IMG/VR virus record: IMGVR_UViG_3300032314_000513
Location: 20,380 to 84,379 of that record
DNA: 64,000 nucleotides
Origin: a virus
Taxonomy: Duplodnaviria; Caudoviricetes
Direction: 5' to 3' (one strand)
The notes below the pieces were generated by a model. The model saw nothing but the letters and a program-made list of their open reading frames with translations, searched no databases and had not been told where the DNA came from. Positions 7,309 through 60,056 of this stretch are shown here, in pieces (the first letter of the stretch is position 1; every line of letters starts with the position of its first letter). The position numbers and the translations under genes were made by a program.

Positions 7309-7318
7309 AAATAAAATA

Positions 7319-7438: not shown

Positions 7439-7444
7439 TTTAAC

Positions 7445-9953: not shown

Positions 9954-9975
9954 AAGTTAAAAAAAACCATAAAAT

Positions 9976-11069: not shown

Positions 11070-11501
11070 ATGAACCAACAGAATGAAATTATATTACTTG
11101 AAGAGTTAATTTCTATAGTCAAAAACAAAGGCTATACCAAAACTTTAAATATTCTTAAAAAGAATAATACATCTTTTTTTGAGATAGATAATTCCTACGA
11201 TAAATTTGTCGTAAACCTAATTGCTAATACTTTTGAAATAGATTCAAATGACTTATTACAAAGTAGATATAGTAGAGGTAATATGAAATACGCTATTGGA
11301 TTTTGCGTTTATTATTTGTATCAAGAAAGAACACTTGGCTACATAGGTAAAAATATATTCAAGGATAAGAATTTAACTTTGCTATCAAGATATAGACAAA
11401 TGATATTCGAATTAACTAAAAAGGATTTACCTTATTACGAAATAAAAGAAGATTTAGATAAAAAAATAGAAAATTTTAAACTTAAAAATAAAGTTAAATG
11501 A
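11070..11501 (+). CDS. Helical protein, possibly DnaA-C-like HTH
   Basis: IANTFEIDSNDLL.SR...YAIGFCVYYL pattern; weak. Confidence 0.4.
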   Translation: MNQQNEIILLEELISIVKNKGYTKTLNILKKNNTSFFEIDNSYDKFVVNLIANTFEIDSNDLLQSRYSRGNMKYAIGFCVYYLYQERTLGYIGKNIFKDKNLTLLSRYRQMIFELTKKDLPYYEIKEDLDKKIENFKLKNKVK

Positions 11502-12649
11502 GTACTGAACAAAACATACCCACCGAAGAAGTAAAACCAAAACAATCTCCTTCTAATTATAATCCATTTTTGGAGCAAGTTAGTGAAAAGCCATATTCAA
11601 CTGTGAATGTTGGAGTTACCCAAGAACAATTAAAATCCTCTATTCCTGAGCCTGTTTATTCTCCTTTTTCAGTAGATTCAAACGAGAACCCATATAATAT
11701 GTTAGGCGGAGACGGACAGCCTAGTGGAGGAGGACAAAAAAGGGAATCAGCACCTTTTAATCCTATGATGAATGATGTTTCTGATGGAGATAAAAAAATG
11801 GGTGCACAGCACATGGCTAAATTATTAGTTGAAGGCTATGAGCAATTACATGTTTTTGGTAATAAAGCTTTGCAGGTACCTGAGAAAAAGATTAGGAAAA
11901 TGGAAAAGGAAGGACTTATAGATTTATCTATTCCGATTCCTTATGAATATGGTAAGACTATTACTGCAGGAGAATTTTTACAAGATTTCAATGAACAAAA
12001 TAAAGATGCTTTAACAGTATCAAGAGAATTTAAAAAAGAAGTTACTCCTGTATTAACTAGAGTTTTAGAAAAAAGAGGTGCAGGATTAACTGATGAGCAA
12101 TATTTAGGTTTTTTAGTTGGTAAAGATTTAGTGGTAAAATTAGTTATTGTAGCACAATTGCGTTCTACTATGAATGACATGATTAATGTAATTAAAGATT
12201 ATACAGAAGCTACAAGAGCAGGTGGTGGTGTACCTCCGCAGCCTCAAGCTCCTACTCCTCAAGCTCCTACTCCTCAACCATCAGCTCCACAGCCACAATA
12301 TCAAGAGCCTTCTCATTCAGCACCTGATTTTAACTTTCAAGATAATGAAGTGGTAATGAATAGTACAGTACAACAAATGCAAGTTCCTAGCACAGGTAAA
12401 GCAAGAGTTATTGCACAAATTCAAAAAGAAAAGAAATGGAAAAATGATGCGGATAAAGCAGGTGGGGGGTCATCTTACGAACAAGCTATGAAAGAAAGAA
12501 AAAATAGTGGCAAAAGAGGAAGAAAAAAAGCAAAAGATTATGTTGATGAAGTAAAAATGGATGAAGACCAAATTGCTGAAGCTATAATTTTGAATGAGAC
12601 TATTAATCAACCTAAAAAGGTTAAGGACCCTTACGCAGATTTAGATTAA
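11498..12649 (+). CDS. 383-aa protein upstream of the packaging ATPase
   Basis: Long ORF with QAPTP repeats; no recognised domain. Confidence 0.7.
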   Translation: MSTEQNIPTEEVKPKQSPSNYNPFLEQVSEKPYSTVNVGVTQEQLKSSIPEPVYSPFSVDSNENPYNMLGGDGQPSGGGQKRESAPFNPMMNDVSDGDKKMGAQHMAKLLVEGYEQLHVFGNKALQVPEKKIRKMEKEGLIDLSIPIPYEYGKTITAGEFLQDFNEQNKDALTVSREFKKEVTPVLTRVLEKRGAGLTDEQYLGFLVGKDLVVKLVIVAQLRSTMNDMINVIKDYTEATRAGGGVPPQPQAPTPQAPTPQPSAPQPQYQEPSHSAPDFNFQDNEVVMNSTVQQMQVPSTGKARVIAQIQKEKKWKNDADKAGGGSSYEQAMKERKNSGKRGRKKAKDYVDEVKMDEDQIAEAIILNETINQPKKVKDPYADLD

Positions 12650-12939: not shown

Positions 12940-13761
12940 ATGGCAAGAGAACCTATGCTAATGGCTGCCTGTGGAAAGAAAGGGGTGGGTAAAAGTTATC
13001 AGCACATGATTCTCATGAACCAATATGTTCAAGGAGATTATTATAATGGTGTAAGAGGTAGAAAATGTTTGATAATGGATGTTAATGATGAATATGGTCA
13101 TGGTACTTATTATGTACAAGCTTTATCATTAAAAGATGTTTCATTATTTTCTGTACATCCTAATGTTGAAATTAGAAGAATTAGGCCGTTTCATCCAAAT
13201 GGAACTAGAATGACTTTAGATGAATGGGCTCAAGCTTTATTCTATGTTTTAAATAGATTCAGAAATGGTTTATTATTAATTGAGGATGTAAATAAATTTA
13301 TTGGAGACCATTTACCAAATGATTTAGTGGGTTCTATTGCAACTAATCGACATGTTGGTTTAGATATAATTCTTTCTTATCAGTCTTTAGGTAGAATTAA
13401 TACTAAGATTTGGGGTAATTTAAACCAATTAAGATTCCATAAAAACAATGAGAGTGTTGAAAGACATGCTTTAAAATTCCCTGATAAAGCCGAGTTTATG
13501 CGTATTGCAGAGATTATGGTTAATAATGAATATGCAAGAGGCAATAATAGATTTTTTTTATATGTAGATATGGATGAATCTAAAATTAGAGGTAATATTA
13601 ATGATGAATTAAGAGAAGAGGCTCTAAATCAATATATTAACGAAAACTACAATATTCTTTTAAAGCCATTTTTGGTACAAAGAGATGGCAACAAGAAAAA
13701 ACATACTACAGAAACTGCTATAAAAGAGATAAAACAGAGACTTACTTCAGCCTATTTTTAG
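12940..13761 (+). CDS. FtsK/HerA-superfamily genome packaging ATPase (P9/A32-like)
   Basis: N-terminal Walker A GKKGVGKS, IMDVNDEY, Walker B LLLIED, NRHVGLDIILSYQ (Arg finger and Gln). Confidence 0.88.
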   Translation: MAREPMLMAACGKKGVGKSYQHMILMNQYVQGDYYNGVRGRKCLIMDVNDEYGHGTYYVQALSLKDVSLFSVHPNVEIRRIRPFHPNGTRMTLDEWAQALFYVLNRFRNGLLLIEDVNKFIGDHLPNDLVGSIATNRHVGLDIILSYQSLGRINTKIWGNLNQLRFHKNNESVERHALKFPDKAEFMRIAEIMVNNEYARGNNRFFLYVDMDESKIRGNINDELREEALNQYINENYNILLKPFLVQRDGNKKKHTTETAIKEIKQRLTSAYF

Positions 13762-13802
13762 GCTTTTTGCTTGATTTTCAGGCTTATATACCCATCTAAT
13801 AC

Positions 13803-13836
13803 ACCCTTTCCTATTTATTCAGGAAGGGGTTTTTTT
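13803..13836 (+). terminator. Intrinsic terminator
   Basis: ACCCTTTCCT/AGGAAGGGGT stem, 8-nt loop, T run. Confidence 0.75.
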
Positions 13837-13928
13837 ATTTTCAACTAATTATATACATATAAAAGTAGCTATATAAAAAAGTTACAAAAAACTGATTAAT
13901 TTATTTCTATTAATGCCTAGTAATTACC

Positions 13929-13936
13929 TAAATTTG
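13929..13936 (+). promoter_or_regulatory. Bacteroidota-type -7 box TAAATTTG of the capsid operon
   Basis: Exact TAnnTTTG between the terminator and ATG 14002; another copy at 14947-14954. Confidence 0.6.
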
Positions 13937-14001
13937 ATATGTCAATGCTGAATCTGTATTCACAATGACACTTATTCATAAAACAATTAAATAGTATTAA
14001 G

Positions 14002-14109
14002 ATGAATTTCAAAGCAATCGCAGGACAATTACTAATCGTTGCAGGTGGTGTTGCTCTATACATGTTGGCTATAAAGCCTATGTTAGACAAAGCTAATGTA
14101 TCTAAGTAA
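14002..14109 (+). CDS. 35-aa membrane protein preceding the capsid gene (not in ORF track)
   Basis: MNFKAIAGQLLIVAGGVALYMLAIKPMLDKANVSK. Confidence 0.7.
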   Translation: MNFKAIAGQLLIVAGGVALYMLAIKPMLDKANVSK

Positions 14110-14165
14110 TCATAGAAGTAAACGAATTTAAAATCAAATTAATTCAAAATTAAAATTCATTAAAA

Positions 14166-14864
14166 ATGAGTAGTATTCAACGCTATTTACAAATGGCAAA
14201 CCGTCAAGTAAACGAATCGTTTATTGGCGTAGATGGTTTTGTAGACGATGACATGTATTTTGCAGCAGGAGATAATTTCTTCGGTGCAGACGGTACAGAA
14301 GCAGCTCCTGCTGCAGCACCTGCAGTTATGCGTTCTCAACCTTACATCTTAACAGTATCTAACGCTTCTAACGCAGCAGTTACTATTGATGTATTCGGAG
14401 CTTATATCTATTTGAACAACGCAGGTTTTTCAGGTGGAAGCTTAACAGTAAGCAATGTTACAATCACTTCAGGATTGTCAAATGTTACTTACTATAACTT
14501 ATTGAACCAATCATCTGTATCTCCTTTCACAATTGGAAGTACTTTGATTTCTTCAGTAAATGGTACAACTAGCCAAGTGTTACAACCTTTAACACTTAGC
14601 ACTTTAGATGCAAACGGTAACCAAGCAACTAAAATCTTAACTCCTGTTATTGACCCGTATCAACAACAAAGTGGTGTTATTGAATTGAAACAACCATTCA
14701 GAATTGATGGTTTCACTAAGTTAACTTTCAGCATTTATGCTTCAAGTTCTGTTCAATTCCAATTCTACCCTTCTGATACAATCAACATCGCAAGAGGTTT
14801 AGGTGGTAACGCTGTATCTAAGCAATATGGTAGTCCAAAAATTATCAGACCGGCTTCTCGTTAA
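14166..14864 (+). CDS. Probable major capsid protein, single-jelly-roll size
   Basis: Beta-strand-rich 232 aa, own terminator, TTC/AAC/ATC-rich codons, follows the ATPase; DANGN...IDPYQ. Confidence 0.7.
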   Translation: MSSIQRYLQMANRQVNESFIGVDGFVDDDMYFAAGDNFFGADGTEAAPAAAPAVMRSQPYILTVSNASNAAVTIDVFGAYIYLNNAGFSGGSLTVSNVTITSGLSNVTYYNLLNQSSVSPFTIGSTLISSVNGTTSQVLQPLTLSTLDANGNQATKILTPVIDPYQQQSGVIELKQPFRIDGFTKLTFSIYASSSVQFQFYPSDTINIARGLGGNAVSKQYGSPKIIRPASR

Positions 14865-14890
14865 TCCGAGTAGATTAGGAAAAATATAAG

Positions 14891-14933
14891 AAAGGGGCGA
14901 GAGTGTGATTTTATCTTACTCCGCCCTTTTTTT
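14891..14933 (+). terminator. Intrinsic terminator after the capsid gene
   Basis: GGGCG(A)GAGT...ACTCCGCCC stem followed by T7. Confidence 0.8.
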
Positions 14934-14958
14934 AATTAAAATTTAGTAAATTTGTGTT

Positions 14959-15378
14959 ATGTCATTACCTAGAGTAAATATATTCAACTATACCGCTGCA
15001 GCTAACCCTTATTTCGTTAAGAGTTTAGCCCATAAGTATGGTTATGAATTTGATAAGGACCAAAAATTAGATACTGTTTTACAACAACTAGTAACTTACG
15101 AAGGTGAACCTGTCATGATGGAAATAATTGAGAACAGTCCTGATAAGGATTTATTCATGGATTATTTTGAAAAGAAGTATGGCAAAAAAGAAGAAAAGAA
15201 TAATTCAAATGAATTAGGTGGTGCAAGACTACTTGATACTTATATGAATTTCACAGGACAACTACAAGCTGCACAACAAACTGCTGAAAATAAAATGTTG
15301 ACAAAAGAAACAAGTGTTATGGTTTTACTTGGTGCAGTTCTTATTTCATTCGCAATAATGTTTAAAAACAACAAATAA
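14959..15378 (+). CDS. Virion membrane protein, C-anchored, with NFTG
   Basis: C-terminal TM; YMNFTG. Confidence 0.75.
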   Translation: MSLPRVNIFNYTAAANPYFVKSLAHKYGYEFDKDQKLDTVLQQLVTYEGEPVMMEIIENSPDKDLFMDYFEKKYGKKEEKNNSNELGGARLLDTYMNFTGQLQAAQQTAENKMLTKETSVMVLLGAVLISFAIMFKNNK

Positions 15379-15379
15379 T

Positions 15380-16048
15380 ATGGCACTTTCAGCAATAGAA
15401 ACTGCAAAAGAATTAATTTCATACGCAGTCGTAACAGATAAGAATGGTTTAGTTAAGTTATTACAAAGAAATGGTATTGAGTTACCAAATAATCCTTCTG
15501 ACAACGAAGTAACAGTTGCTGTCTTGATGGCAAATAATAAAAGTGGTGTTTTCAGAAATGAATTAAAAAAATATTTAGGTGGGTTAGTTCCTGAAATATC
15601 TAATTATACAACAGAATTAGGTGGTGGAATGAACTTCACAGGTACAGATGATTTTTCTTTTACTGCAGGAGATGATAATTTTTATAATGCAACCGCTGCT
15701 GAGGCAAAAGCCTTAAGGGTATCAGCTACAAATCCTACAGGCAAAACTAAAGTAGGTTTAGCATTAGCAAGTATTGGAACTTTCTTTAAAGATAGTGTAC
15801 TTACAAAAGATAATATCAACGCAGGTATTAATATTGGTTTAACTAGTTTAGCTAATAAGACTCAAGCACAGCAAAATGCTGTTACTGCTCAGTCTTTACA
15901 ATTACAAAATTATCAAGATACTTTAAGACAACAATTACCTAATGCAGATAAGAAATCTAACACTATGTTATATGTATGGATTAGTGTTGGTGTGTTAGCT
16001 GTTGGTGTTTTAGGATTTGTTTTATACAAATCATATAAGAAGAAATAA
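15380..16048 (+). CDS. Virion membrane protein, C-anchored, with NFTG
   Basis: MNFTGTDDFSFTAGDDNFYNA; C-terminal TM then KSYKKK. Confidence 0.75.
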   Translation: MALSAIETAKELISYAVVTDKNGLVKLLQRNGIELPNNPSDNEVTVAVLMANNKSGVFRNELKKYLGGLVPEISNYTTELGGGMNFTGTDDFSFTAGDDNFYNATAAEAKALRVSATNPTGKTKVGLALASIGTFFKDSVLTKDNINAGINIGLTSLANKTQAQQNAVTAQSLQLQNYQDTLRQQLPNADKKSNTMLYVWISVGVLAVGVLGFVLYKSYKKK

Positions 16049-16239
16049 TGTCCAATAATAAAAAAATATTATTAATTGGAGGTGCTTTGGTAATAGCATA
16101 TCTTTTATTAAAAAAGAAAAAAAATACTTTGGTTAGTGAAAATGGAAAAGAAAAGATAGTGCAGTTTGACCCTATAAATGTTAAACCAATGCCATGGATA
16201 GGTGTTCCAAATTCACTTCCTGAAATTAAAATAAATTAA
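16048..16239 (+). CDS. N-anchored small membrane protein
   Basis: ILLIGGALVIAYLLLKKKK. Confidence 0.75.
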   Translation: MSNNKKILLIGGALVIAYLLLKKKKNTLVSENGKEKIVQFDPINVKPMPWIGVPNSLPEIKIN

Positions 16240-16240
16240 A

Positions 16241-16375
16241 ATGACTAAAGAGAATAAAGAATTATTATGGATAAGTGGATTTGTATTTGTTTTATATACA
16301 CTTTATAAGATATATGAAAAGAAATATCAATCAGTTCCTGATTCAGTAGTAATTCCAACAGAGTTCGAAAATTAA
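16241..16375 (+). CDS. 44-aa membrane protein (not in ORF track)
   Basis: MTKENKELLWISGFVFVLYTLYKIYEKK... Confidence 0.7.
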   Translation: MTKENKELLWISGFVFVLYTLYKIYEKKYQSVPDSVVIPTEFEN

Positions 16376-16402
16376 ATTAAATAACAAACAAAAACAAAAA
16401 TT

Positions 16403-16546
16403 ATGTTAAAAGGTAAAAATTTATGGATTTTATTAGGTGTAGGTGCTGTAGCATACTACTATTTTATGATGAAGAAGAAAAAAGATGCTGCTGCTTCTGC
16501 TCCTGCAACTGCTGCAACTAACTTCACAGGAACTATGGGATATTAA
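16403..16546 (+). CDS. 47-aa membrane protein, paralogue of the next gene (not in ORF track)
   Basis: MLKGKNLWILLGVGAVAYYYFMMKKKK...APATAATNFTG. Confidence 0.8.
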   Translation: MLKGKNLWILLGVGAVAYYYFMMKKKKDAAASAPATAATNFTGTMGY

Positions 16547-16570
16547 TTTTAAATTTTAAAAAATTAAAAA

Positions 16571-16843
16571 ATGTTAAAAGGTAAAAATTTATTGATTATT
16601 GCAGGTGTTGCTGCTGTAGGTTATTATTTATATAAGAAAAATCAAGATGCTAAAGTAATTGCTCCTGCAACTGCTGCAAAGAACTTCACAGGAGACTTAG
16701 ATGTTTTAGCAAATCAAAACTTTACAGGAGATTTAGGTGTTCTTAACGCAAGTGGTCCTAGCGATAGACAATTAAATAGATTAGAAAAAGTTATGACTAG
16801 AAATCCACAAAGAGCTCAAAGAATGATTAAAAGAATGTTCTAA
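16571..16843 (+). CDS. N-anchored membrane protein with two NFTGDL repeats
   Basis: MLKGKNLLII...; NFTGDL twice, then NASG. Confidence 0.8.
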   Translation: MLKGKNLLIIAGVAAVGYYLYKKNQDAKVIAPATAAKNFTGDLDVLANQNFTGDLGVLNASGPSDRQLNRLEKVMTRNPQRAQRMIKRMF

Positions 16844-16861
16844 TCAGATAATTTAAAAATT

Positions 16862-17254
16862 ATGACAAATACAAAAAAAGTATTGTTATACGCAGGTGCT
16901 GTTATAGTAGGTTACCATTTATGGAAATACTACAGTAAGCCTAAAAGCGTATTATTAAAAGGTTCTGATGCTGACACACCTGAAAAGGTAGAATATAGCA
17001 CAGGAAAAGAAGGTATGTTAGGTTCTGATGGTTCTTTAGATACAATGATTAATTTAAAGAAACCCATCTATATTAGACCTCAAAATTCTATTCCTAATGT
17101 TTATGATAGAGGTATTGGACAATTTATTAATGGTAGCGGTGGTTACATGAACGCAACAGGTTTTCATGAGAACTTAGCTACAGCTTGTAACGCTAAAACA
17201 GTTAAAAATTTAGGTGCTACAAAAATTGATATACCTATAATACCTCAAAACTAG
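16862..17254 (+). CDS. N-anchored membrane protein
   Basis: N-terminal TM; NGSG and NATG. Confidence 0.75.
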   Translation: MTNTKKVLLYAGAVIVGYHLWKYYSKPKSVLLKGSDADTPEKVEYSTGKEGMLGSDGSLDTMINLKKPIYIRPQNSIPNVYDRGIGQFINGSGGYMNATGFHENLATACNAKTVKNLGATKIDIPIIPQN

Positions 17255-17257
17255 AAA

Positions 17258-17398
17258 ATGAATAAAACAACAAAATACATTTTAATTTATGCTGCAGTAG
17301 CAGGTGGAGTTTATTTACTTTATAAACAATATCAAGTTATGCAAAATAAATTAGATGGAGATTCCGCTTTAAAAAAGTGGAACGCACAACACAATTAA
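17258..17398 (+). CDS. 46-aa membrane protein (not in ORF track)
   Basis: MNKTTKYILIYAAVAGGVYLLYKQY... Confidence 0.7.
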   Translation: MNKTTKYILIYAAVAGGVYLLYKQYQVMQNKLDGDSALKKWNAQHN

Positions 17399-17408
17399 AA
17401 TAAAAACA

Positions 17409-17645
17409 ATGGCAGAGGCAAAAGATATATTAGATAAAGTAAAACAATTAAAATCTAATTCTGAAAGCATGGCCTTAAAGAAAATGAAAGGAACTGTTTC
17501 AGGAGCATTGATTGGCATGGGTGGAGGCTTACTAATAGGATTTACAAGAGGCTATAGTTTAGTCTCTTCTGCGTTTGTAGGAGCTTTACTTGGTGGTGTT
17601 ATATCTCAAGTTTTATTACCTAAATTAGATGATAATAATGAATAA
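17409..17645 (+). CDS. Gly-zipper two-TM membrane protein
   Basis: GALIGMGGGLLIG and GALLGG. Confidence 0.7.
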   Translation: MAEAKDILDKVKQLKSNSESMALKKMKGTVSGALIGMGGGLLIGFTRGYSLVSSAFVGALLGGVISQVLLPKLDDNNE

Positions 17646-18324
17646 TAAGTACATCAAAATGGCAGCTTTGGCTGCTATCGCAATAGGTGGTTATTTAGTG
17701 ATTAAAAATTTACTAGGTAAATCTGTTGGTACGCCTAAGCAAGTGGGTGATTCCGAAGCAGGAACAAGTAATGGTAAGGCTACAGTTTCTAATTATTTCC
17801 CTTTGGCTAAAGGTAGTAAAGGAGAAAAGGTTCGAGAACTACAGACTATTTTAGTAGGTATTGATGCAAACGCATTACCTAAATACGGTATTGATGGAGA
17901 CTTTGGAAGTGAAACAGAAGCTGCTTTATTTAAGTATTTGAATAAGAAAAGTGTTGATAATCAAGAAGATATAGCTACTTTAAATTCTTTAAAGACTACC
18001 GCACAATCTAAAGCTTTAGCATCTTCAATAAACGCTAATAGAAGTATAACTGCGAATGAAATTATCAATAATTGGAAGTTAAACAATACTAAAAGTGTTT
18101 ATGCAGCGAACGACTTAGGATATGTTATAGGAGATTTATCAGCATCAGGCTTAGAATTAAACGCTGTAAACAAATACGCCAAGAAAGGTGATGTTATTGT
18201 TAATGGATTTGAAATTAAAGATATGAAAGTACTACCTAGTGGATACATTATGGCTTCAATAGGTGTACTTGGCCTTGGGGGTAAATTTGCTAAATTTAGT
18301 CCTTTCGGTGTGATGATAAATTAG
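17638..18324 (+). CDS. Membrane-anchored peptidoglycan-binding-domain protein
   Basis: N-terminal TM; LAKGSKGEKVRELQ...IDGDFGSETEAAL (PG_binding_1); start moved to Met4. Confidence 0.8.
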   Translation: MNNKYIKMAALAAIAIGGYLVIKNLLGKSVGTPKQVGDSEAGTSNGKATVSNYFPLAKGSKGEKVRELQTILVGIDANALPKYGIDGDFGSETEAALFKYLNKKSVDNQEDIATLNSLKTTAQSKALASSINANRSITANEIINNWKLNNTKSVYAANDLGYVIGDLSASGLELNAVNKYAKKGDVIVNGFEIKDMKVLPSGYIMASIGVLGLGGKFAKFSPFGVMIN

Positions 18325-18352
18325 TAATTTTAAAGCAAAAAATAACCATAAA

Positions 18353-18643
18353 ATGGAAGAAGTGAATTTAGATAAAAAGCTTACTGCTAACCAACTTTTT
18401 AAAGAATATAAAGACGAGGGTGGCACATTGAATTTTTCAGATTGGTTGACTAGAGAAAAGACAAAAGGTATTTTCCCTATAAATTCTAATCTAAATCAAG
18501 AAGTAGGTAAAAAATTAACTGATTTAAAACAAGAAGAAATGAATAAAACAGTTTTAGGTTTCCCTGTAAGCACCTTATTAATAGCAGGTGGAGTAATCAT
18601 AGTAGCAATAGTTGCTGTTAATGTATTAAAAAAGAAAGCATAA
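18353..18643 (+). CDS. C-anchored membrane protein
   Basis: ANQLFKEY...FSDWL; C-terminal TM then KKKA. Confidence 0.75.
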   Translation: MEEVNLDKKLTANQLFKEYKDEGGTLNFSDWLTREKTKGIFPINSNLNQEVGKKLTDLKQEEMNKTVLGFPVSTLLIAGGVIIVAIVAVNVLKKKA

Positions 18644-18924
18644 TGAAAAAAGATAATTTTATTTGGTGGGTATTAGGTGGCGTTGGAGCTGTTGCTCTTT
18701 GGTATTATTATCAGAATAATAAAAAGAAAGTAACAACACAAGACTTAATAGTTGATGTTCTTAAAGAAGAGCAAGATAAGTATAGTACTCCTTTTAAGGC
18801 TGAGTACAATATAGTCATGCCTTCTGATTTAGTGTCAAAGAGAGTAAGAGAAAAAGGAGAACAATTAAGAGCAGGTAGATTTGAAATCCAACCTGATAAA
18901 GTACAAGCACCTTTATTTATATAA
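18643..18924 (+). CDS. N-anchored membrane protein
   Basis: FIWWVLGGVGAVALWYYY. Confidence 0.75.
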   Translation: MKKDNFIWWVLGGVGAVALWYYYQNNKKKVTTQDLIVDVLKEEQDKYSTPFKAEYNIVMPSDLVSKRVREKGEQLRAGRFEIQPDKVQAPLFI

Positions 18925-18925
18925 G

Positions 18926-19732
18926 ATGCAGTACAAATTGTGGACAAGATATGAACCTGTAATGGTTAAAGTTGTGGTAAAAACAAATTCACCTCAACTT
19001 ATTGTGTTAAAGGCATTTGACCCAACACAAGCCAATACAGTTTTTATGGAAAGGGAAAAAACCATTGAAGGAGTACAAGAGTTGTATGTAAGGATGCCAT
19101 TATCCCCTAGTTCAACTGCTCTATCAATTTATAATAAAAAAAATGGCAACTTACCAAAAGGTAAGGATAGTTCTTTTGAAGTAGTGGAAATTAAAAAAGA
19201 AGATTTGGACATTACCTTGGGTCAAACCAAAATGGACAATTCTTTAGTTAGGAATTTTGTTGCTTTTGCTCAGAAGTTTGCATTTAACGCAGGTTGGATA
19301 CAAGCTCCAAAAGATTATATAAGTACAGTAGGTGCTTTTAAAATTGAATACTTACCTTATATAACAAACAACAAAACAAATGCAAAGATGGCTACACCTG
19401 CTCGTATAAGTACCAAGAATGGTCGTATACAAGTGTCTCAGGAAGCTTTCTTACCATTTACTATTCCTATGAGAATGGCAATATTATTACATGAGTTTAG
19501 CCATTTTTATTTGAATAGCGATATTTCTAATGAGACTGAAGCGGATTTGAACGGACTTACAATTTATTTAGGATTGGGCTACCCTATCAAAGAGGCCTAT
19601 TCTGCTTTTATAGATACCTTTATTGGTTATCCTACAGAACAGAACAAAAGAAGATATGATATAATCAATAGGTTCATAAAGGACTATATTGAAGAATATA
19701 AAATAAAAGATGTCTACGCTGTAGGCGAATAA
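18926..19732 (+). CDS. Zincin metallopeptidase
   Basis: ILLHEFSHFY and NETEAD; start moved to ATG 18926 (MQYKLW). Confidence 0.75.
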   Translation: MQYKLWTRYEPVMVKVVVKTNSPQLIVLKAFDPTQANTVFMEREKTIEGVQELYVRMPLSPSSTALSIYNKKNGNLPKGKDSSFEVVEIKKEDLDITLGQTKMDNSLVRNFVAFAQKFAFNAGWIQAPKDYISTVGAFKIEYLPYITNNKTNAKMATPARISTKNGRIQVSQEAFLPFTIPMRMAILLHEFSHFYLNSDISNETEADLNGLTIYLGLGYPIKEAYSAFIDTFIGYPTEQNKRRYDIINRFIKDYIEEYKIKDVYAVGE

Positions 19733-19742
19733 AATTAAAGTT

Positions 19743-20270
19743 ATGGCAGATAAAGGTGCTTTACGAGTTTATACAGAATTACCACAATGGGCTAAAGGTG
19801 TTGTAGTCGTGGGTGGACTTGTTGTAGGTTACATAGCTGTTACTGCTATTTTAAGAAAGATAAAAGAAGCTAAAACTAAAGCAGAATCTTTAACAGAAGT
19901 TAACGATGCTACTAATGAATTACAAACTGAAGTAAAAAATGGTAAAAGACCAACAATAGCTAAAACAACTGTTGAAGCAATGGCTAATGCAATTGTAGCA
20001 GCTTCAAATGATTGTGGAACAGATGAAGAAAAAATTTATTCTCAATTTGATAAAGTAAGTAATCAAGCAGATGTTTTATTATTGGTTCAAGTATTTGGTT
20101 TAAGACAAAAAGTAAGATGTCCTTTCTCAGATGACCCTAGAGAGTCTTTCTTCTCAGCAAATACACCTCCAATGTCATTATCAGCTATGTTAAATTCAGA
20201 ATTGGATACAACACAGATGCAGACTTTGAACAATAAATTAGCAACAAAAGGAATTAAATATAAATTTTAA
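19743..20270 (+). CDS. N-anchored membrane protein with helical domain
   Basis: TM GVVVVGGLVVGYIAV; GTDEEKIY. Confidence 0.75.
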   Translation: MADKGALRVYTELPQWAKGVVVVGGLVVGYIAVTAILRKIKEAKTKAESLTEVNDATNELQTEVKNGKRPTIAKTTVEAMANAIVAASNDCGTDEEKIYSQFDKVSNQADVLLLVQVFGLRQKVRCPFSDDPRESFFSANTPPMSLSAMLNSELDTTQMQTLNNKLATKGIKYKF

Positions 20271-20273
20271 TAT

Positions 20274-20888
20274 ATGGCACTTTTTGAATCAGAAAAAAAG
20301 AGAGTAACAGAAGCAAGTAATAGCTATGCACAGAAATATCCTTTAAGTGATAACATATCTAACTTACAAGCTAGTGTTAATGCGGCTAATGTAGATTTAG
20401 TTGGTTTAAGAAATGAACAACCTGAAACTGCAGGAGGTAAGCGTGTAAGACAAAGAAACATTACTGCTTTATCTAATAGAATTATGCAGCTTCAAAATAA
20501 AATTAAAGATTTACAAAGCGGTATGAGTGGTAGTGATATTATTAAAATTGCTTATCCTTCTTTTGCTACTCTTCCAAAAGTTACTTCTCAAACTATTTTA
20601 GGAAGTACACCATATAGCTTTCAGATACCAATGTTGAATATGCCAAATAGCGTTAAAAATATAGCAAAATCAAAACCTGCATCAACTACAACTGATGCAA
20701 CTGATTTAGCTGATAGTATTGCAAATAACGATGGTGTGCCTGTAGGTGGAGAAGCAAATGGTGCTAAAGGTGATTATCCACCTCCTTATGGAGTTCAAAA
20801 TTCAGGAAGTAAATCAATATTATTGTACGGTGGATTAGCAGTAATATTAGGTTTTACAGCTTATTATATGTTTATAAAGAAAAAATAA
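20274..20888 (+). CDS. C-anchored membrane protein, paralogue of the next gene
   Basis: KYP...KRVRQRNITAL; C-terminal TM. Confidence 0.75.
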   Translation: MALFESEKKRVTEASNSYAQKYPLSDNISNLQASVNAANVDLVGLRNEQPETAGGKRVRQRNITALSNRIMQLQNKIKDLQSGMSGSDIIKIAYPSFATLPKVTSQTILGSTPYSFQIPMLNMPNSVKNIAKSKPASTTTDATDLADSIANNDGVPVGGEANGAKGDYPPPYGVQNSGSKSILLYGGLAVILGFTAYYMFIKKK

Positions 20889-20892
20889 TTAT

Positions 20893-21357
20893 ATGGCAAT
20901 ATTAGGACCAACAGGTAAAAAAATAGCAATAGGGGCAGCAGTAGCAGGTGGTTTAACACTTGCAGGAATAGGTATTGCTAAAAACGCAGAGCAAAAAAGA
21001 GTTTTAGCGGCTGAAGATGAAATGAAAAAGAAATATCCTTTCTCAGAAGATTGTCTTCAAATGCAACATATATATAAAACAGCAAAACTTACTTTGGCTC
21101 AATTAGAAGCTGAATCAGGTGGAGATGCAGGTGCTAAAAGAGTAAGAGCAAGAAATGCAGCAGCTTTAAAGAAAAGAATTTTAGAGCTTGAAAATTATAT
21201 ACCAAATTTAGATTGCTCAAAGGCGGTTTTAGCTCCTGATGGGTTACCACAAGCTTCACCTGCTCCTGCATCTAATATTACTAAATATTTGTTATATGGT
21301 GTTGCAGGTTTAATTTTATTGGTGGTATTTTCTAACTTAATGAAGAAAAAAGACTAG
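20893..21357 (+). CDS. Membrane protein hydrophobic at both ends
   Basis: KYP...KRVRARNAAAL; TM-like N- and C-termini. Confidence 0.75.
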   Translation: MAILGPTGKKIAIGAAVAGGLTLAGIGIAKNAEQKRVLAAEDEMKKKYPFSEDCLQMQHIYKTAKLTLAQLEAESGGDAGAKRVRARNAAALKKRILELENYIPNLDCSKAVLAPDGLPQASPAPASNITKYLLYGVAGLILLVVFSNLMKKKD

Positions 21358-21359
21358 TT

Positions 21360-22034
21360 ATGGCAATAGACATGATTGAAAATAATGAACTTGGTGCCCT
21401 TGCAAAAAGCAGATTAGGGGATACTAAGCAGTTTACTGATGAAAACCAAAAGTTTAAAAACTTCTCAGGTAATGAGGAGGTTTTTCAAAGAGTAGACATA
21501 AATGAAGAGTTTGAAAACCTTTTTGGAAGTAAAACATTCAAAGACAATAAAGCAAAAGCTACTAAAGAAGCTGAAGATTTTGTCGCAGCTTTACCAAAAG
21601 GTAATTGTGATGATATTGAAAAAAGTTTAGAAAGACTTGCTTTATACATTGAAGCTCAAACTAAAGAATTGGGATTAGCTAAAGGTCATGTTACTGAATA
21701 TCCTAAAAACAGATTAATAGTAGCTAGAAAAGCAGAAGCGAATTTAAAAATGGCACAATCTAATGCTGATTGTTTAAATATACAAGCTAAAGCACAATCT
21801 GAAGCTAAAAAAGCTGATTTGATAAAGACTTTAACTAATGTTTCAGAAGCTAGTGTTCAACAAGCAAAAACAGACCTTTTTGGCACTCCTGTAGGCCAAC
21901 CTTTGTACGCACCTGCTACAAGTGGTGAAGGGGCATTAAGTTCTGTGCAAAATGCACTTGGTTCTAATAAAAATTTATTAATTTACGGTGGAATTGGAGT
22001 AATTGCTCTAATTCTCTTATTAAGAAGAGACTAA
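21360..22034 (+). CDS. C-anchored helical membrane protein
   Basis: FKNFSG; C-terminal TM. Confidence 0.75.
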   Translation: MAIDMIENNELGALAKSRLGDTKQFTDENQKFKNFSGNEEVFQRVDINEEFENLFGSKTFKDNKAKATKEAEDFVAALPKGNCDDIEKSLERLALYIEAQTKELGLAKGHVTEYPKNRLIVARKAEANLKMAQSNADCLNIQAKAQSEAKKADLIKTLTNVSEASVQQAKTDLFGTPVGQPLYAPATSGEGALSSVQNALGSNKNLLIYGGIGVIALILLLRRD

Positions 22035-22036
22035 GA

Positions 22037-22528
22037 ATGAAATATTTAAAACCTGCATTGATAATTAGTGGATTAGGCGTAATTGGTTACGCCCTTTTCC
22101 GTTATTATAAGAAGCAAATAGATTTTGTAAAAGATATTCAATACACCATTTCAGGGTTAAAAATTGTTAATATCGCTAAAGAAGATGTTACACTTGAAAT
22201 ATTTTTAAAAGTCTATAACGCATCTAATGTCGAAGCTAAGGTTACTGAGATTTTTCTTGATGTAATTATGAATGGTACGAAAGTAGGTTCAATTAATGAA
22301 TCAACTGAATTTACTATTAAGCCAACACAAACAACTGAGGTAAGCTATAAATTTAGCTTTAACCCTAGCTTGGTTATTAAAAATATTGTTAATATATTGA
22401 CTTTGACTGTAGCATTGAAAGATGTTGTAATAGTAGCAGATGGATATATGAAAGTAAAGAGTGGTTTTTTATCAACAACAATACCATTCACATATCAAAA
22501 CACATTGAAAAATCTTTTAAAAAAATAA
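22037..22528 (+). CDS. Membrane-anchored LEA_2/WHy-like beta protein
   Basis: N-terminal TM; LKVYNASNVEAKV...VGSI strand pattern. Confidence 0.6.
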   Translation: MKYLKPALIISGLGVIGYALFRYYKKQIDFVKDIQYTISGLKIVNIAKEDVTLEIFLKVYNASNVEAKVTEIFLDVIMNGTKVGSINESTEFTIKPTQTTEVSYKFSFNPSLVIKNIVNILTLTVALKDVVIVADGYMKVKSGFLSTTIPFTYQNTLKNLLKK

Positions 22529-23241: not shown

Positions 23242-26200
23242 ATGAGTAGTACATTTTTAGGAGGAGATACTTTTAGTTTTATTAGTGGCGGTGCCGGTGG
23301 TGGCGGTGGAACTGATGGTTCTGCAGGTACATCAGGCGTATCAGGAACTTCAGGTACATCAGGTACTCTAGGTACTAGTGGTATAAGCTATGGCTCTAGT
23401 GGTACTAGTGGAACTAGTGCTTCTTCAGGTACTTCAGGCTCAACAGGTTTAACAGGTTCAAGCGGTACTTCAGGTGCAGGTGGTTCTAGTGGTACTTCAG
23501 GAAATTCAACTGCAGGTACTTCAGGTACAACAGGTTCAAGCGGTTCAAGTGGTTCAAGTGGTGTGAGTGGAACAAATGGTACAGCAGGTTCAAATGGTAC
23601 ATCAGGCTCTAGTGGAAATAATGGCTCTAGTGGTACTTCAGGTGCTGCAGGGTCAAGCGGTAATAGTGGTACTAGTGGTGTCAATGGTACTAGTGGAACA
23701 TCAGGTTCTACAGGTACATCAGGTTCTTCTGCCTCTTCAGGAACTTCAGGTTCTAGTGGTAGTGCAGGTACAACAGGTACGGATGGTAGTAATGGTACTT
23801 CAGGTTCAGCAGGTACTTCAGGTCGTGATGCAACTGCAGGAACAAGTGGTCGTGATGCGACTGCAGGAACAAGTGGTCGTGATGCGACTTCAGGTTTAGA
23901 TGGTTCTTCAGGTACTTCAGGAATAGATGGTACAAATGGTTCTTCAGGTACTTCTGCATCAAGTGGAACTTCTGCAACTAGTGGAGCAAATGGTACTTCA
24001 GGTACAGATGGTACAAGTGGTACTTCAGGTCGTGATGCAACTGCAGGTACTTCAGGACAAGATGCAACAGCAGGTACCTCAGGTTCTTCTGCAACAGCAG
24101 GAACTTCAGGTTCTTCTGCTTCTTCAGGTTCAAGTGGAACTAATGGTTCAAGCGGTACTTCAGGTACAACAGGCTCTTCAGGAACAGCAGGTTTATCAGG
24201 AGATAGATATAGAACGACCTCAAGTACTGAATTTACTTTATCAGGTTCAGGACAAATTACAATTACAATTGGTTTAGGCCTTTCTTACACAATAGGACAA
24301 GCTGTAACCATTGCTTACGATATTAACGACATTCAATTTGGTGATGTTGTATCTTATAATTCAAATAATGGAACTTTAGTATTTAATGCAACAACATTTA
24401 CAGGTTCAGGAACATACAACTTTTGGACTGTAAACTTATCAGGTGCTGCAGGAGGAGATGGTTCTTCAGGTACTTCAGGTTCTTCAGGAACAAATGGTAC
24501 TTCAGGTTCTTCAGGCACTAGTGGTACAAGTGCAAGTTCAGGTTCTAGCGGAACTACAGGAACAGATGGTTCTAGTGGTACAAGTGGAGTAGATGGTACT
24601 TCAGGTACTGATGGCTCTAGCGGTACTTCAGGCATTGATGGTACTTCAGGAACAGATGGTTCTAGTGGAACAGATGGTAGCTCAGGAACTTCAGGTTCTA
24701 GCGGAACTACAGGTACAGATGGTAGCTCAGGAACTTCAGGAACAGATGGTTCTAGTGGTACTTCAGGTACAGACGGAAGCTCAGGAACTGATGGTTCTTC
24801 AGGTACAACAGGTACAGATGGTTCAAGCGGAACAGATGGTAGCTCAGGTACAGATGGTAGCTCAGGAACTTCAGGAACTACAGGTACTACAGGTACTTCA
24901 GGTTCTTCAGGAACTAGTGGAACTTCTGCAACTTCAGGTTCAAGTGGAACTTCAGGTACAGATGGTAGCTCAGGAACTTCAGGCTCATCAGGAACTACAG
25001 GTACCTCAGGAACTTCAGGTTCTTCAGGAACAGATGGTTCTAGTGGTACTTCAGGCTCTAGTGGAACAACAGGTACTTCAGGTACTTCTGCAACAGCAGG
25101 TTTATCAGGAGATAGATATAGAACAGCCTCTACAACTTCTGCAACTTTAGGAGTTAGTGGTACTATAACAATCGGTTTATCTTTAGCATACACCTCTGCT
25201 CAAACATTTATAATGACTTATGATAGTTCAAACTATCAAATTTGTCAAGTAGTTACATATAATCCTTCAAATGGATTATTAACATATTCAGCACCTGTTA
25301 CAGTTGTAGGTTCAGGTACTTATGATGTATGGGTTGTTAACTTAGCAGGAGCTTCAGGAACTTCAGGTTCTTCAGGTACTTCTGCATCAAGTGGAACTTC
25401 AGGTACAACAGGTACTTCAGGTACGGATGGTAGTTCAGGAACTTCAGGTTCTTCAGGTACTTCAGGTTCAAGTGGAACTTCAGGTTCTTCAGCTACTTCA
25501 GGAACTTCTGCCTCTGCAGGAACTAGTGGTAGTTCAGGAGCAGCAGGAGATAGATATGCTACTACTTCAGTAGAAACATTTACATTAGGAAATAGTGGTT
25601 CATTAACCGTATCTCCTAATTTATCATATACTGTAGGTCAATCAATTATTATAGCTTATGATATTAATAATTACCAAGAGTGTAATGTAGTATCTTATAC
25701 AGCTGTTCCGGGTATATTATATTTTGATGCTCCTACAATAACAGTAGGTAGTGGAGAATATAGCTCATGGGAAATTAACTTAAATGGTGCTACAGGTGGT
25801 GCAGGTTCAAGTGGAACTTCAGGTTCTGCAGGAACTTCAGGAACTACAGGAACAGATGGTTCATCAGGAACAAGTGGTACAAGTGGTACAGACGGAAGCT
25901 CAGGTACAACAGGTACTGATGGTTCTAGCGGTTCTTCAGGTACTTCAGGTGAATCAGGTTCTTCAGGAACGAGTGGTAGCACAGGAACTTCAGGAAGCTC
26001 AGGAACAAGTGGTTCTTCAGGTACTTCAGGAGTAAGTGGTGCTAGTGGAACTTCAGGTTCTTCAGGTACAGATGGTAGCAATGGCACAAGTGGTAGCTCA
26101 GGTTCAAGTGGTACTGATGGTAGTAATGGAACTAGTGGTACAACAGGTACTAGTGGAACAGATGGTTCTAGTGGTACTTCTGCTGCTGATGGAACAAGCG

Positions 26201-26415
26201 GTACTTCAGGAGAAAATGGTACTTCAGGAACTACAGGAACAGATGGTTCAAGTGGTACTGATGGAAGTAGTGGAACTTCAGGCACAGCAGCAACAGCAGG
26301 TACAGCAGCAACTTCAGGATTATCTACTTTAATGGCAGGAACAAGTGGAAGTACAATTACTATTCCACCTGCAGAAGCAACTACTAGTACAACAACAACT
26401 ACTACAACAGTCTAA
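23242..26415 (+). CDS. Gly-Thr/Ser-triplet fibre protein with three internal beta-domains
   Basis: GTS/GSS/GTD triplets; three GDRY...SY...W.VNL.GA domains. Confidence 0.85.
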   Translation: MSSTFLGGDTFSFISGGAGGGGGTDGSAGTSGVSGTSGTSGTLGTSGISYGSSGTSGTSASSGTSGSTGLTGSSGTSGAGGSSGTSGNSTAGTSGTTGSSGSSGSSGVSGTNGTAGSNGTSGSSGNNGSSGTSGAAGSSGNSGTSGVNGTSGTSGSTGTSGSSASSGTSGSSGSAGTTGTDGSNGTSGSAGTSGRDATAGTSGRDATAGTSGRDATSGLDGSSGTSGIDGTNGSSGTSASSGTSATSGANGTSGTDGTSGTSGRDATAGTSGQDATAGTSGSSATAGTSGSSASSGSSGTNGSSGTSGTTGSSGTAGLSGDRYRTTSSTEFTLSGSGQITITIGLGLSYTIGQAVTIAYDINDIQFGDVVSYNSNNGTLVFNATTFTGSGTYNFWTVNLSGAAGGDGSSGTSGSSGTNGTSGSSGTSGTSASSGSSGTTGTDGSSGTSGVDGTSGTDGSSGTSGIDGTSGTDGSSGTDGSSGTSGSSGTTGTDGSSGTSGTDGSSGTSGTDGSSGTDGSSGTTGTDGSSGTDGSSGTDGSSGTSGTTGTTGTSGSSGTSGTSATSGSSGTSGTDGSSGTSGSSGTTGTSGTSGSSGTDGSSGTSGSSGTTGTSGTSATAGLSGDRYRTASTTSATLGVSGTITIGLSLAYTSAQTFIMTYDSSNYQICQVVTYNPSNGLLTYSAPVTVVGSGTYDVWVVNLAGASGTSGSSGTSASSGTSGTTGTSGTDGSSGTSGSSGTSGSSGTSGSSATSGTSASAGTSGSSGAAGDRYATTSVETFTLGNSGSLTVSPNLSYTVGQSIIIAYDINNYQECNVVSYTAVPGILYFDAPTITVGSGEYSSWEINLNGATGGAGSSGTSGSAGTSGTTGTDGSSGTSGTSGTDGSSGTTGTDGSSGSSGTSGESGSSGTSGSTGTSGSSGTSGSSGTSGVSGASGTSGSSGTDGSNGTSGSSGSSGTDGSNGTSGTTGTSGTDGSSGTSAADGTSGTSGENGTSGTTGTDGSSGTDGSSGTSGTAATAGTAATSGLSTLMAGTSGSTITIPPAEATTSTTTTTTTV

Positions 26416-26436
26416 TAAAATATAAAATAAATATAA

Positions 26437-28320
26437 ATGTCTTATTCTAATATTACCATAACCACTAACACAGGTTTATCATTTTATCCCGGCCAATATG
26501 TTCAGGTGATACATGATGAGAATAACTATATTTTTGGTCAAGTAGTAAGCTATGACCCTAATACAGGAATTTTTACTTTTTTACCTACAAATTTTTTAGG
26601 AGCAGGAACTTTTAATACATGGACTGTGGTGGCATCTGCTGTTTCAGGTTCAAGTGGTACTTCAGGTTCAAGTGGAACTTCAGGCTCTTCAGGTACAGAC
26701 GGAAGCTCAGGTACAGACGGAAGCTCAGGTTCAAGTGCAAGTTCAGGAGAAAGTGGAACTTCAGGTACATCAGGAGTAAGTGGTGCTAGTGGAACTTCAG
26801 GCTCTTCAGGAACTGATGGCTCAAGTGGTACTTCTGCATTAGATGGAACTAGTGGAACGACAGGAACTTCAGGAACTACAGGAACTAGCGGAACAGATGG
26901 TAGTTCAGGTTCAAGCGGTACATCAGGTTATGATGGAACAGCAGGAACTTCAGGCACTAATGGAACTGCAGGTACTTCAGGAGAAAATGGAACAAGCGGA
27001 ACAGATGGAAGCTCAGGTACAGATGGAAGCTCAGGAACATCAGGCACTAACGGAACAGCAGGAACAAGTGGAAGCTCAGGAACAGCAGCTACATCAGGTT
27101 TAAGTGGTGATTTATATAAAACAACAACAACTGATTCAATTGATTTAGGAACATTAGCTCCGGGTGATGGTATAAATATTACTGTAGCAACAGGATTAGC
27201 ATACACAATAGGTCAAACTGTAGTAGTATCTAATAGTATAACTGATTATTTAGAAGGAAATGTTAGTTCATACACATCTATTGATGGTGCAATGGAAATA
27301 TTAATAGTTACTATAGTTGGTACAGGTATATTTACTTCTTGGGAAGTTAACTTAGCAGGAGCAGCAGGAGGAGATGGTACAGCAGGTACTTCAGGCTCTG
27401 CAGGAACAAGCGGAACTAATGGAACTGATGGTTCTTCAGGTTCTAGTGGTACAAGTGGAGAAAATGGAACAAGCGGTACTTCAGGTTCTAGTGGTACTAA
27501 TGGAAGCTCAGGAGAAACAGGTACTTCAGGTACAACAGGAACATCAGGTTCTAGCGGTACTAGTGGAAATGAAGGTGCTGATGGTAATTTAGCAGAATGG
27601 TTATATAACCCAAGCCCTGATACTACAACAAATCCCGGAAGTACAAAATTTACATTAGACATTAACTCATGGGGAGAAACTGTAACTAGCATTGCGATTA
27701 GTGATAACGCATATAATCCTGCAGTAAATTTTTCTACATACTTAAATTTCATTGGAGCAAATACTGTTATTAGATTAACAAGTTTAATAGATAAATCTAC
27801 TTTTAAGTTTTTAAAAGTAATTACAAATACTCCTCTTACAGCAGGTTTTGAAAACTATGATGTAACACAAATTGGTAGTGGTGGTACTGACCCTGCTCCA
27901 AATGCTGTATTCTATTTTAATATTATTGGTGTAAGTGGTACTTCAGGAACAAGTGGAACTAGTGGAAGCTCAGGTACTTCTGCTTCTGCAGGAACAAGTG
28001 GAAGCTCAGGTACAAATGGTACAGCAGGTACTTCAGCATCTTCAGGTAGTAGCGGTTCTTCAGGAACTAGTGGTACAAATGGTACAGCAGGTACTTCTGC
28101 TTCATCAGGAACTAGTGGTTCATCAGGAACAAGTGGTAGCTCAGGTACTTCAGCTTCTAGCGGTACTTCAGGAACAGATGGAAGCTCAGGTACAGCGGCT
28201 TCTTCAGGTTCTAGTGGAACAGCAGGTACTTCAGCATCTTCAGGAACTGCAGCAACCTCAGGTAATTCATCAACATATAATGGTACTTCAGGAACAACAC
28301 AAACATTACCTTTGACTTAG
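26437..28320 (+). CDS. Second Gly-Thr/Ser fibre protein
   Basis: Same triplets; N-truncated and internal copies of the beta-domain. Confidence 0.85.
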   Translation: MSYSNITITTNTGLSFYPGQYVQVIHDENNYIFGQVVSYDPNTGIFTFLPTNFLGAGTFNTWTVVASAVSGSSGTSGSSGTSGSSGTDGSSGTDGSSGSSASSGESGTSGTSGVSGASGTSGSSGTDGSSGTSALDGTSGTTGTSGTTGTSGTDGSSGSSGTSGYDGTAGTSGTNGTAGTSGENGTSGTDGSSGTDGSSGTSGTNGTAGTSGSSGTAATSGLSGDLYKTTTTDSIDLGTLAPGDGINITVATGLAYTIGQTVVVSNSITDYLEGNVSSYTSIDGAMEILIVTIVGTGIFTSWEVNLAGAAGGDGTAGTSGSAGTSGTNGTDGSSGSSGTSGENGTSGTSGSSGTNGSSGETGTSGTTGTSGSSGTSGNEGADGNLAEWLYNPSPDTTTNPGSTKFTLDINSWGETVTSIAISDNAYNPAVNFSTYLNFIGANTVIRLTSLIDKSTFKFLKVITNTPLTAGFENYDVTQIGSGGTDPAPNAVFYFNIIGVSGTSGTSGTSGSSGTSASAGTSGSSGTNGTAGTSASSGSSGSSGTSGTNGTAGTSASSGTSGSSGTSGSSGTSASSGTSGTDGSSGTAASSGSSGTAGTSASSGTAATSGNSSTYNGTSGTTQTLPLT

Positions 28321-28330
28321 AAAATATAAA

Positions 28331-30652: not shown

Positions 30653-30678
30653 AAAAAACCATAAAAAACTAAAAAACT

Positions 30679-31476
30679 ATGCCATACGCAGATTTAACAT
30701 TTCAACTTCAGCCTAATCTGAGATTTGTTGCAAATGATTTTGTAACACTAACAGGTGTTAACTATACTACTACAACTAGTACTACAACTACTACAACTAC
30801 ATTGAATGTAATAAGTAGTGGATTGCAATTATATGTTGATGCTAGTAATCCTGCTTCATATTCAGGAACAGGAAGTACATGGTATGATTTAAGTGGAAAT
30901 GGTTATAATGGTACATTAAGTGGTAGTACAGCTTATAATTCTGCAAACGGTGGTTATATTTCCACACAATCTAATACAGGATATATAGATTTTGGTCTTT
31001 CTTCTCAAGGAAGTAGTACTAGTGCTTTTACTTGGGGTGGTTGGTTTAATGTTCCAAGTTTTACAAATATCCCTATGGCAAGAGGCAATGATATGACAGG
31101 AGGTTATCCCAATGGATGGAATCTTGCTACTGTATTCTTGTCAAACGCATTTAATGCTTCAATAATCACTTCTGTACCCGGTATAACTCAAACAAATAGT
31201 TCATACTCTTCAAGTCCAAGTAGTAATACTTGGTATAATCATATATCAGTATGGAATCCGGGAGTAAGTTTAAAAGTATATATAAATGGTGTTTTAAGAG
31301 CTACTGTAAATACTTCAAATACAGTTTTAAGAAATTCAGGTACAGGTTGGAATAGTTCAAATGATGCTACAAAGTATAACGCTAGTTATGGTTCAATGAT
31401 TGTTTATAATATAGCATTGAGTGATGCACAAGTTCTTCAAAACTTTAATTCAACTAAAACAAGATTTGGATATTAA
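30679..31476 (+). CDS. LamG/ConA lectin-like protein with a partial fibre domain at the N-terminus
   Basis: MPYADLTFQLQPNLRFVANDFV, Thr run, VDASNPASYSG... Confidence 0.8.
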   Translation: MPYADLTFQLQPNLRFVANDFVTLTGVNYTTTTSTTTTTTTLNVISSGLQLYVDASNPASYSGTGSTWYDLSGNGYNGTLSGSTAYNSANGGYISTQSNTGYIDFGLSSQGSSTSAFTWGGWFNVPSFTNIPMARGNDMTGGYPNGWNLATVFLSNAFNASIITSVPGITQTNSSYSSSPSSNTWYNHISVWNPGVSLKVYINGVLRATVNTSNTVLRNSGTGWNSSNDATKYNASYGSMIVYNIALSDAQVLQNFNSTKTRFGY

Positions 31477-31488
31477 AAATTAAAAATT

Positions 31489-31725
31489 ATGAAAAAATAT
31501 TTAATATTATTTTTATTATTATTTAGCATTAATTCTTATTCTCAAGTAGATAGCACTAAAAGAGCAGCAGCTAGACAAGAATGGTTATCTAATAAAGATA
31601 ATTGGAGTAATGGTCAATCGATGCCTAATTGGGATTTGGATGGTAATATTATACCAATAGTGGGTATTTTATTAATATCATCCATATTTTTAAAAAGAAA
31701 GAATAAATTAAGGTTTGGACTATAA
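31489..31725 (+). CDS. Small signal-peptide and TM protein
   Basis: MKKYLILFLLLFSINSYSQ signal; C-terminal TM. Confidence 0.65.
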   Translation: MKKYLILFLLLFSINSYSQVDSTKRAAARQEWLSNKDNWSNGQSMPNWDLDGNIIPIVGILLISSIFLKRKNKLRFGL

Positions 31726-31736
31726 AATAATTAACA

Positions 31737-33795: not shown

Positions 33796-33797
33796 AT

Positions 33798-34160: not shown

Positions 34161-34170
34161 TTAAGAAACA

Positions 34171-35885: not shown

Positions 35886-35890
35886 TTTAT

Positions 35891-40104: not shown

Positions 40105-40107
40105 ATT

Positions 40108-60019: not shown

Positions 60020-60056
60020 AAGAGCAGTCTAGGTTTGAGCCATTCTGCTCTTTTTT
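60020..60056. terminator. Hairpin between early genes
   Basis: AAGAGCAG/CTGCTCTT stem with 17-nt loop; the T run is on the plus strand, opposite to local gene direction. Confidence 0.35.

Follow-up and report, generated by a model that had tools for sequence, protein, structure and literature searches.

A probable core for virion assembly

What kind of particle is built by a virus that is classed in Caudoviricetes and in which an ATPase gene is followed by a small operon for a jelly-roll-like protein? The stretch of DNA that raises this question (64,000 nucleotides, hereafter the window) comprises positions 20380-84379 of the 84,379-bp linear IMG/VR record IMGVR_UViG_3300032314_000513, which has 32% GC and is ~75% complete according to CheckV. 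We consider it likely that this region forms the morphogenesis core of a double-stranded DNA (dsDNA) virus of Bacteroidota without a tail and with an internal membrane, from an undescribed lineage with a known virion type but an unusual genome size and one-capsid-gene build. Since the record is incomplete, the absence of genes from it alone is weak proof, and the argument rests on relatives. A core-gene comparison covered eight genomes, large and proviral, six of them large, and five genes were common to all eight: the gene at 11498, the ATPase gene, the capsid gene and the genes for an HExxH protein and an LEA_2 protein.

Packaging ATPase and capsid operon

The gene at 12940..13761 (+ strand, as are all features below unless noted) encodes a 273-aa FtsK/HerA-superfamily genome-packaging ATPase of the P9/A32/B204 type. 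As a preliminary description of the sequence had proposed, the protein has an N-terminal Walker A motif (GKKGVGKS, residues 12–19) and an RH...Q motif (RH at 137–138, Q148), and its structure, which is closest to the packaging NTPase of STIV2, agrees with the P9/A32-type assignment made there. The Walker B motif is hhhhED rather than hhhhDE, with the acidic residues in swapped order in every aligned member. The protein is also alignable with the P23-77 ATPase (E = 1.5e-4), and the lineage has both the FtsK/HerA-family packaging ATPase expected of Singelaviria/Halopanivirales and the P9/A32-type packaging ATPase expected of prokaryotic Varidnaviria. In the ATPase tree the lineage forms one side of a branch, and because the reference branches are too long the tree gives no placement of it.

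A terminator-like hairpin (13803..13830) lies 3' of the ATPase gene, and beyond it the promoter, transmembrane gene and strong terminator of the preliminary description were all recovered. The Bacteroidota-type promoter −7 element of the capsid operon, TAnnTTTG (13929..13936), was recognized by sequence and by its recurrence in relatives: 53 of 61 relatives have it 182–270 nt 5' of the capsid gene, compared with 20/61 in an equal-length stretch within the gene. No accompanying −33 TTTG element was seen, and before genes genome-wide the −7 element shows a weak excess (9/122 versus ~6 expected). The first gene of the operon encodes a hydrophobic 35-aa single-pass membrane peptide (14002..14109), identified also by its position before the capsid gene, where a small hydrophobic open reading frame (ORF) is found immediately 5' in 59 of 68 matches; judged by reference gene orders it is a positional analogue of PM2 P7, PRD1 P20 and SH1 VP12. 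The operon ends in a strong intrinsic terminator (14887..14934; −25 kcal/mol, z = −6.6, 0/200 shuffles), and a terminator-like hairpin follows the capsid gene in 55 of 56 relatives.

The putative major capsid protein (14166..14864, 232 aa) is modelled as an N-terminal helix (residues 3–17), a flexible linker, one jelly-roll-type beta-sandwich (~55–206, ~150 residues) with an insertion at 78–120, and a C-terminal arm. The lack of such a fold had been named beforehand as grounds for refutation, and both the model and structure searches support a jelly-roll-type fold. Because the model has one beta-sandwich, and its matches to PBCV-1 and faustovirus span a single barrel, the double jelly roll of Varidnaviria is not what this protein has. 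Searches of Pfam, PHROGs and PDB sequences gave no match to the capsid protein, and no sequence similarity to VP16/VP17 was detected; the ESM Atlas (features and structure) returned weak, unnamed matches only, and BFVD returned weak generic jelly rolls. The single-jelly-roll type suggested earlier is borne out by the structural searches. In the comparison proposed there, the capsid model was not close to sphaerolipovirus, portoglobovirus or phiCjT23 proteins: sphaerolipovirus, SPV1 and phiCjT23 capsid proteins are absent from the 50 structural matches listed, which does not exclude kinship.

A tailless virus might nevertheless use the 232-aa protein as a penton or minor protein, or build a tubular or pleomorphic enveloped particle from it, the main shell being another protein or membrane. 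We consider this unlikely because the 232-aa gene exceeds all others in codon bias in each large genome and has a promoter and terminator to itself, because a vertex role fits a separate spike-linked paralogue instead, and because no other core protein is plausible as the shell protein. Each provirus has a single detectable copy of the capsid gene.

The paralogue is a second jelly roll and candidate vertex (penton-base) protein (49163..49834; 27% identity to the capsid protein), present in all six large genomes. In five of the six it matches capsid residues 96–205 (family versus capsid profile, probability 99%) and the first two strands are absent; in those five the downstream protein (124–1241 aa) starts with a segment that aligns to precisely the missing strands, capsid residues 55–80 (alignment score 22, E = 0.007, against at most 16 in 30 column shuffles). 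Here the strand segment is fused to the front of 49163 itself (E = 0.002); the next gene encodes a 903-aa spike-like partner (49834..52545) whose N-terminus matches the remainder of the conserved partner module of the relatives (probability 82%, E = 1e-5). These alignments lend moderate support to a vertex protein that would be completed by strands from its spike. As the operon has one capsid gene, and the paralogue of the large genomes is distant (35 kb from the capsid gene), beside the spike gene and not codon-biased, the lineage lacks the two paralogous capsid proteins in hetero-capsomers that characterize Singelaviria/Halopanivirales.

Two side observations concern these jelly rolls. The gene boundary in the split second jelly roll (49163-52545; G006, G017, G020, G021, G005:C9) is shifted in this genome's clade. 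The 102-kb relative L014 has extra capsid-domain copies outside the capsid operon, one single (7247-7711, 154 aa) and one tandem (9824-11017, 397 aa), the latter a fused double form of the lineage's jelly roll; relatives L046, L056 and L060 also have second capsid-domain copies.

Relatives, proviruses and host

The large relatives span 68–132 kb, in line with the expectation of genomes over 64 kb. Three of them (72.5, 68.8 and 67.8 kb) end in inverted repeats of 123–133 bp, and a 132,486-bp contig from a Sediminibacterium metagenome-assembled genome (MAG) has inverted tandem repeats at its ends. The 123–133-bp repeats may be stubs of longer, collapsed inverted terminal repeats (ITRs), so that the unique regions are probably complete and the ends themselves not seen. 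Short, telomere-like G/T-rich tandem repeats occur at genome ends (G005:C9 ends, G006 3' end, G000:C1:1-60); in the 132-kb contig the G/T-rich unit is 11 bp long and inverted at both ends, and the ITR of G021 starts with a tRNA-like sequence.

Fluviicola chungangensis MAH-3, CP034120, a Crocinitomicaceae MAG and a Parvicellaceae MAG, the last with two copies, also have the ATPase and capsid genes within chromosomes or long contigs, and smaller temperate relatives (~22–50 kb) carry the core genes with an integrase in Flavobacteriales chromosomes. On the Fluviicola element (~22–24 kb) lie genes for a serine integrase, a patatin and two lysins, together with small membrane genes in a syntenic block; provirus ends showed no convincing att repeats. 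CP034120 is labelled Glaciecola amylolytica THG-3.7, and its 16S region is 97.3% identical to that of F. chungangensis; the label looks wrong. Two integrated copies (G003:C12:256000-273000 and G004:C2:357000-386000) hold 17–29 kb of cargo between the ATPase and capsid blocks, including RiPP-like (ribosomally synthesized and post-translationally modified peptide) clusters and proteins of >2000 aa.

Long insertions of host-like cargo genes in integrated copies, together with HerA, VirB4 and TrwB as the next structural neighbours of the ATPase, would also suit a linear plasmid or integrative element in which a machine for secretion, conjugation or vesicle packaging, and not a virion, is assembled from the ATPase, the membrane proteins and the wall hydrolases. 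We regard this as quite improbable because the ATPase is a stand-alone protein of 273 aa that is closest to a viral packaging motor, no relaxase was found among the proviral proteins scanned, and the free forms encode several endolysins and fibres and are catalogued as viral contigs.

The Bacteroidota host named in the preliminary description holds for the integrated relatives; for this genome it is the probable host. Shine-Dalgarno motifs precede 0/122 genes, which together with the conserved −7 element fits a Bacteroidota host, the TAnnTTTG-type promoter consensus being established for that phylum. Related contigs that sit in MAGs from other phyla were probably binned there in error. Sequencing runs that contain the stretch are mainly lake and freshwater metagenomes; in RNA runs the shares were small, and these runs were left out of account. 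With 563 capsid clusters and many lake metagenomes, the lineage is common.

Search for a head–tail module

None of three terminase models, a portal model and an HK97 capsid model (PF03237, PF17289, PF04466, PF04860 and PF05065) matched in 25 viral records, nor did a further terminase model (PF03354) in 16; the controls worked, and the profiles detected a tailed prophage that lies on a different contig of relative G005. The terminase, portal and HK97 profiles had no match in the whole 84,379-bp record, and scans of ITR-bounded relatives and of proviral proteins, ten large proteins of the Fluviicola element among them, likewise gave no terminase large subunit (TerL), portal or HK97 match. PHROG scans of large proteins concur that the combination expected of Caudoviricetes (terminase large subunit, portal and HK97-fold capsid) is lacking. 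An HK97 capsid and a TerL in the rest of the contig had been set beforehand as a refutation of the tailless reading, which survives this search. The accompanying claim that tail genes are missing stands in part: no tube, sheath or baseplate was recognized, but four long repeat proteins (23242-32738 scanned) match 'tail fiber' PHROGs. Misannotation of the lineage as tailed phages, also suggested earlier, draws indirect support from Atlas clusters of its polymerase, which bear the Uroviricota label.

That this is an ordinary tailed phage, with terminase, portal and HK97 capsid too divergent or in the missing quarter of a ~75%-complete contig, might be argued from the fibre matches and from a weak terminase PHROG match of the ATPase (E = 2e-4), but it is largely refuted and scarcely credible because that match was rejected as covering the P-loop region only, the ATPase is too small to include a nuclease domain as well, head–tail matches are equally absent from ITR-bounded relatives and from proviruses, and the shared core offers no candidate for any of the three proteins.

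Comparison with known viruses

Neither the ATPase nor the 232-aa capsid protein matched INPHARED (tblastn), and no description of the lineage was found in a literature search whose scope excluded most subscription papers. The nearest cultured analogue is SSIP-1, a tailless virus with a 44 kb circular genome, an internal membrane, a 100 nm, T=49 capsid and a fold given as 'single jelly roll?' (PMC6260650, PMC6356626); the 10–20-kb ceiling previously stated for known bacterial members overlooks it (PMC6260650). The likeness would lie in taillessness, internal membrane, large capsid and capsid-sized proteins of ~210 aa, whereas SSIP-1 differs in its circular 44 kb genome and two capsid protein types. 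The SSIP-1 structural proteins gp44–gp47 had no match to the capsid and ATPase profiles (hidden Markov models, hhalign on single sequences), nor did its P-loop protein gp40 match the lineage ATPase profile.

Halopanivirales (Singelaviria; P23-77, IN93, SH1, HCIV-1, SNJ1) resemble the lineage in having single jelly-roll capsid proteins, an FtsK/HerA packaging ATPase and a membrane protein gene that adjoins the capsid genes, and SH1-type genomes are linear with ITRs (PMC12643093), as are the large relatives here. Singelaviria have paired capsid genes (PMC8812541, PMC12451622), which this lineage does not. Their two capsid paralogues are adjacent, in genomes of 16–31 kb, whereas here there is one capsid gene in genomes of up to 132 kb. 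For the icosahedral virion of Halopanivirales, with its internal lipid membrane and vertical barrels, the indirect sign in this lineage is the surplus of transmembrane proteins close to the capsid gene. STIV/STIV2 (Turriviridae), PM2 (Corticoviridae) and PRD1 (Tectiviridae) share a B204/P9-type ATPase and the gene order ATPase, small membrane gene, capsid gene. Their double jelly-roll capsid proteins are 269–395 aa long, and prokaryotic double jelly-roll viruses, these included, have genomes of <20 kb (PMC8812541). The lineage has one jelly roll, and in this it is like Portogloboviridae, in which SPV1 (archaeal host, genome ~20 kb) combines one single jelly-roll major capsid protein with an internal membrane and a separate jelly-roll vertex protein. 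SPV1 has no packaging ATPase (PMC8812541), whereas here the ATPase is a core gene.

By analogy with PRD1, PM2, STIV and Halopanivirales, we infer that the lineage uses ATP-driven packaging into a membrane-lined jelly-roll shell. Membrane proteins would pattern a patch of host membrane, which the 232-aa protein, anchored by its N-terminal helix, would coat as one-jelly-roll capsomers, probably hexamers, in a high-T icosahedral lattice. The vertices would be formed by the second jelly roll, in most relatives completed by two strands from the spike N-terminus; a hexameric ATPase would then pump the linear ITR genome (68–132 kb) into the empty procapsid, and endolysins would release the progeny.

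The usual assumption is that large bacterial dsDNA viruses have tails, yet this lineage, at 68–132 kb, apparently has one small jelly-roll capsid protein and is up to three times larger than SSIP-1, the largest tailless bacterial virus found described; it is common yet undetected by Pfam, PHROGs and INPHARED. By combining one jelly-roll capsid gene with an FtsK-type motor, the lineage is directly relevant to the proposal that Singelaviria arose from a portoglobovirus-like ancestor. It is conceivable, although we hold it somewhat less probable than even, that the tailless dsDNA virion arose independently in this lineage (a single jelly-roll capsid protein unrelated to those of Singelaviria and Varidnaviria, plus an FtsK-type motor) or that the lineage is a still-living example of the stage, with one capsid gene plus ATPase, that has been implied for the ancestry of helvetiaviruses; if the origin were independent, this abundant lineage of 22–132 kb would deserve a realm- or phylum-level taxon to itself. 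The provirus in the cultured strain F. chungangensis MAH-3 makes the tailless reading of the lineage testable.

Other genes

Upstream of the ATPase gene, a 383-aa core protein (11498..12649; 8/8 genomes) had no match in family searches and is a candidate packaging-vertex or membrane partner. Downstream of the capsid operon, a series of genes (14959..22034) encodes small proteins that cross the membrane once and have basic tails, candidate internal-membrane proteins; of the 40 ORFs less than 10 kb from the capsid gene 19 have a transmembrane segment, compared with 21 of 93 elsewhere, and all relatives show the same excess. The same part of the window holds two further proteins found in all eight genomes: one with an HExxH motif invariant in the alignment (18926..19732), a candidate maturation metalloprotease, and a membrane-anchored LEA_2-domain protein (22037..22528; PF03168, E = 8e-9).

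Gly/Thr/Ser-repeat fibre and lectin-like proteins (23242..35244), recognized by PHROG matches and mutual paralogy, are candidate spikes or receptor-binding fibres. They are followed at 35274-45892 by 2OG-Fe(II) (2-oxoglutarate and iron) oxygenase-like paralogues and sulfotransferase-like and glycosyltransferase-like genes, assigned by paralogy and sequence appearance, a cluster that probably modifies fibres or DNA. On the − strand, 60055..60798 encodes a 247-aa minimal family-B DNA polymerase-like palm protein without an exonuclease domain, which is present in 6/6 large genomes (233–251 aa; motifs DxxHAYW, KxxRLA and KTDCIYY) and adjoined by RecT-like and exonuclease genes; its nearest named Atlas clusters are PF03175/PF00136 at 0.86–0.88, a lead only. 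PHROG and Pfam scans of this genome's large proteins found recombination, MoxR-type ATPase, glycosyltransferase, polyvalent-protein, endolysin and fibre families. The polyvalent proteins (ART-PolyVal, LPD29, DUF2958) and a MoxR-type ATPase pair (G000:C1:11768-20594, window 225-1670) are kept in large relatives and likely have injected or anti-defence functions.
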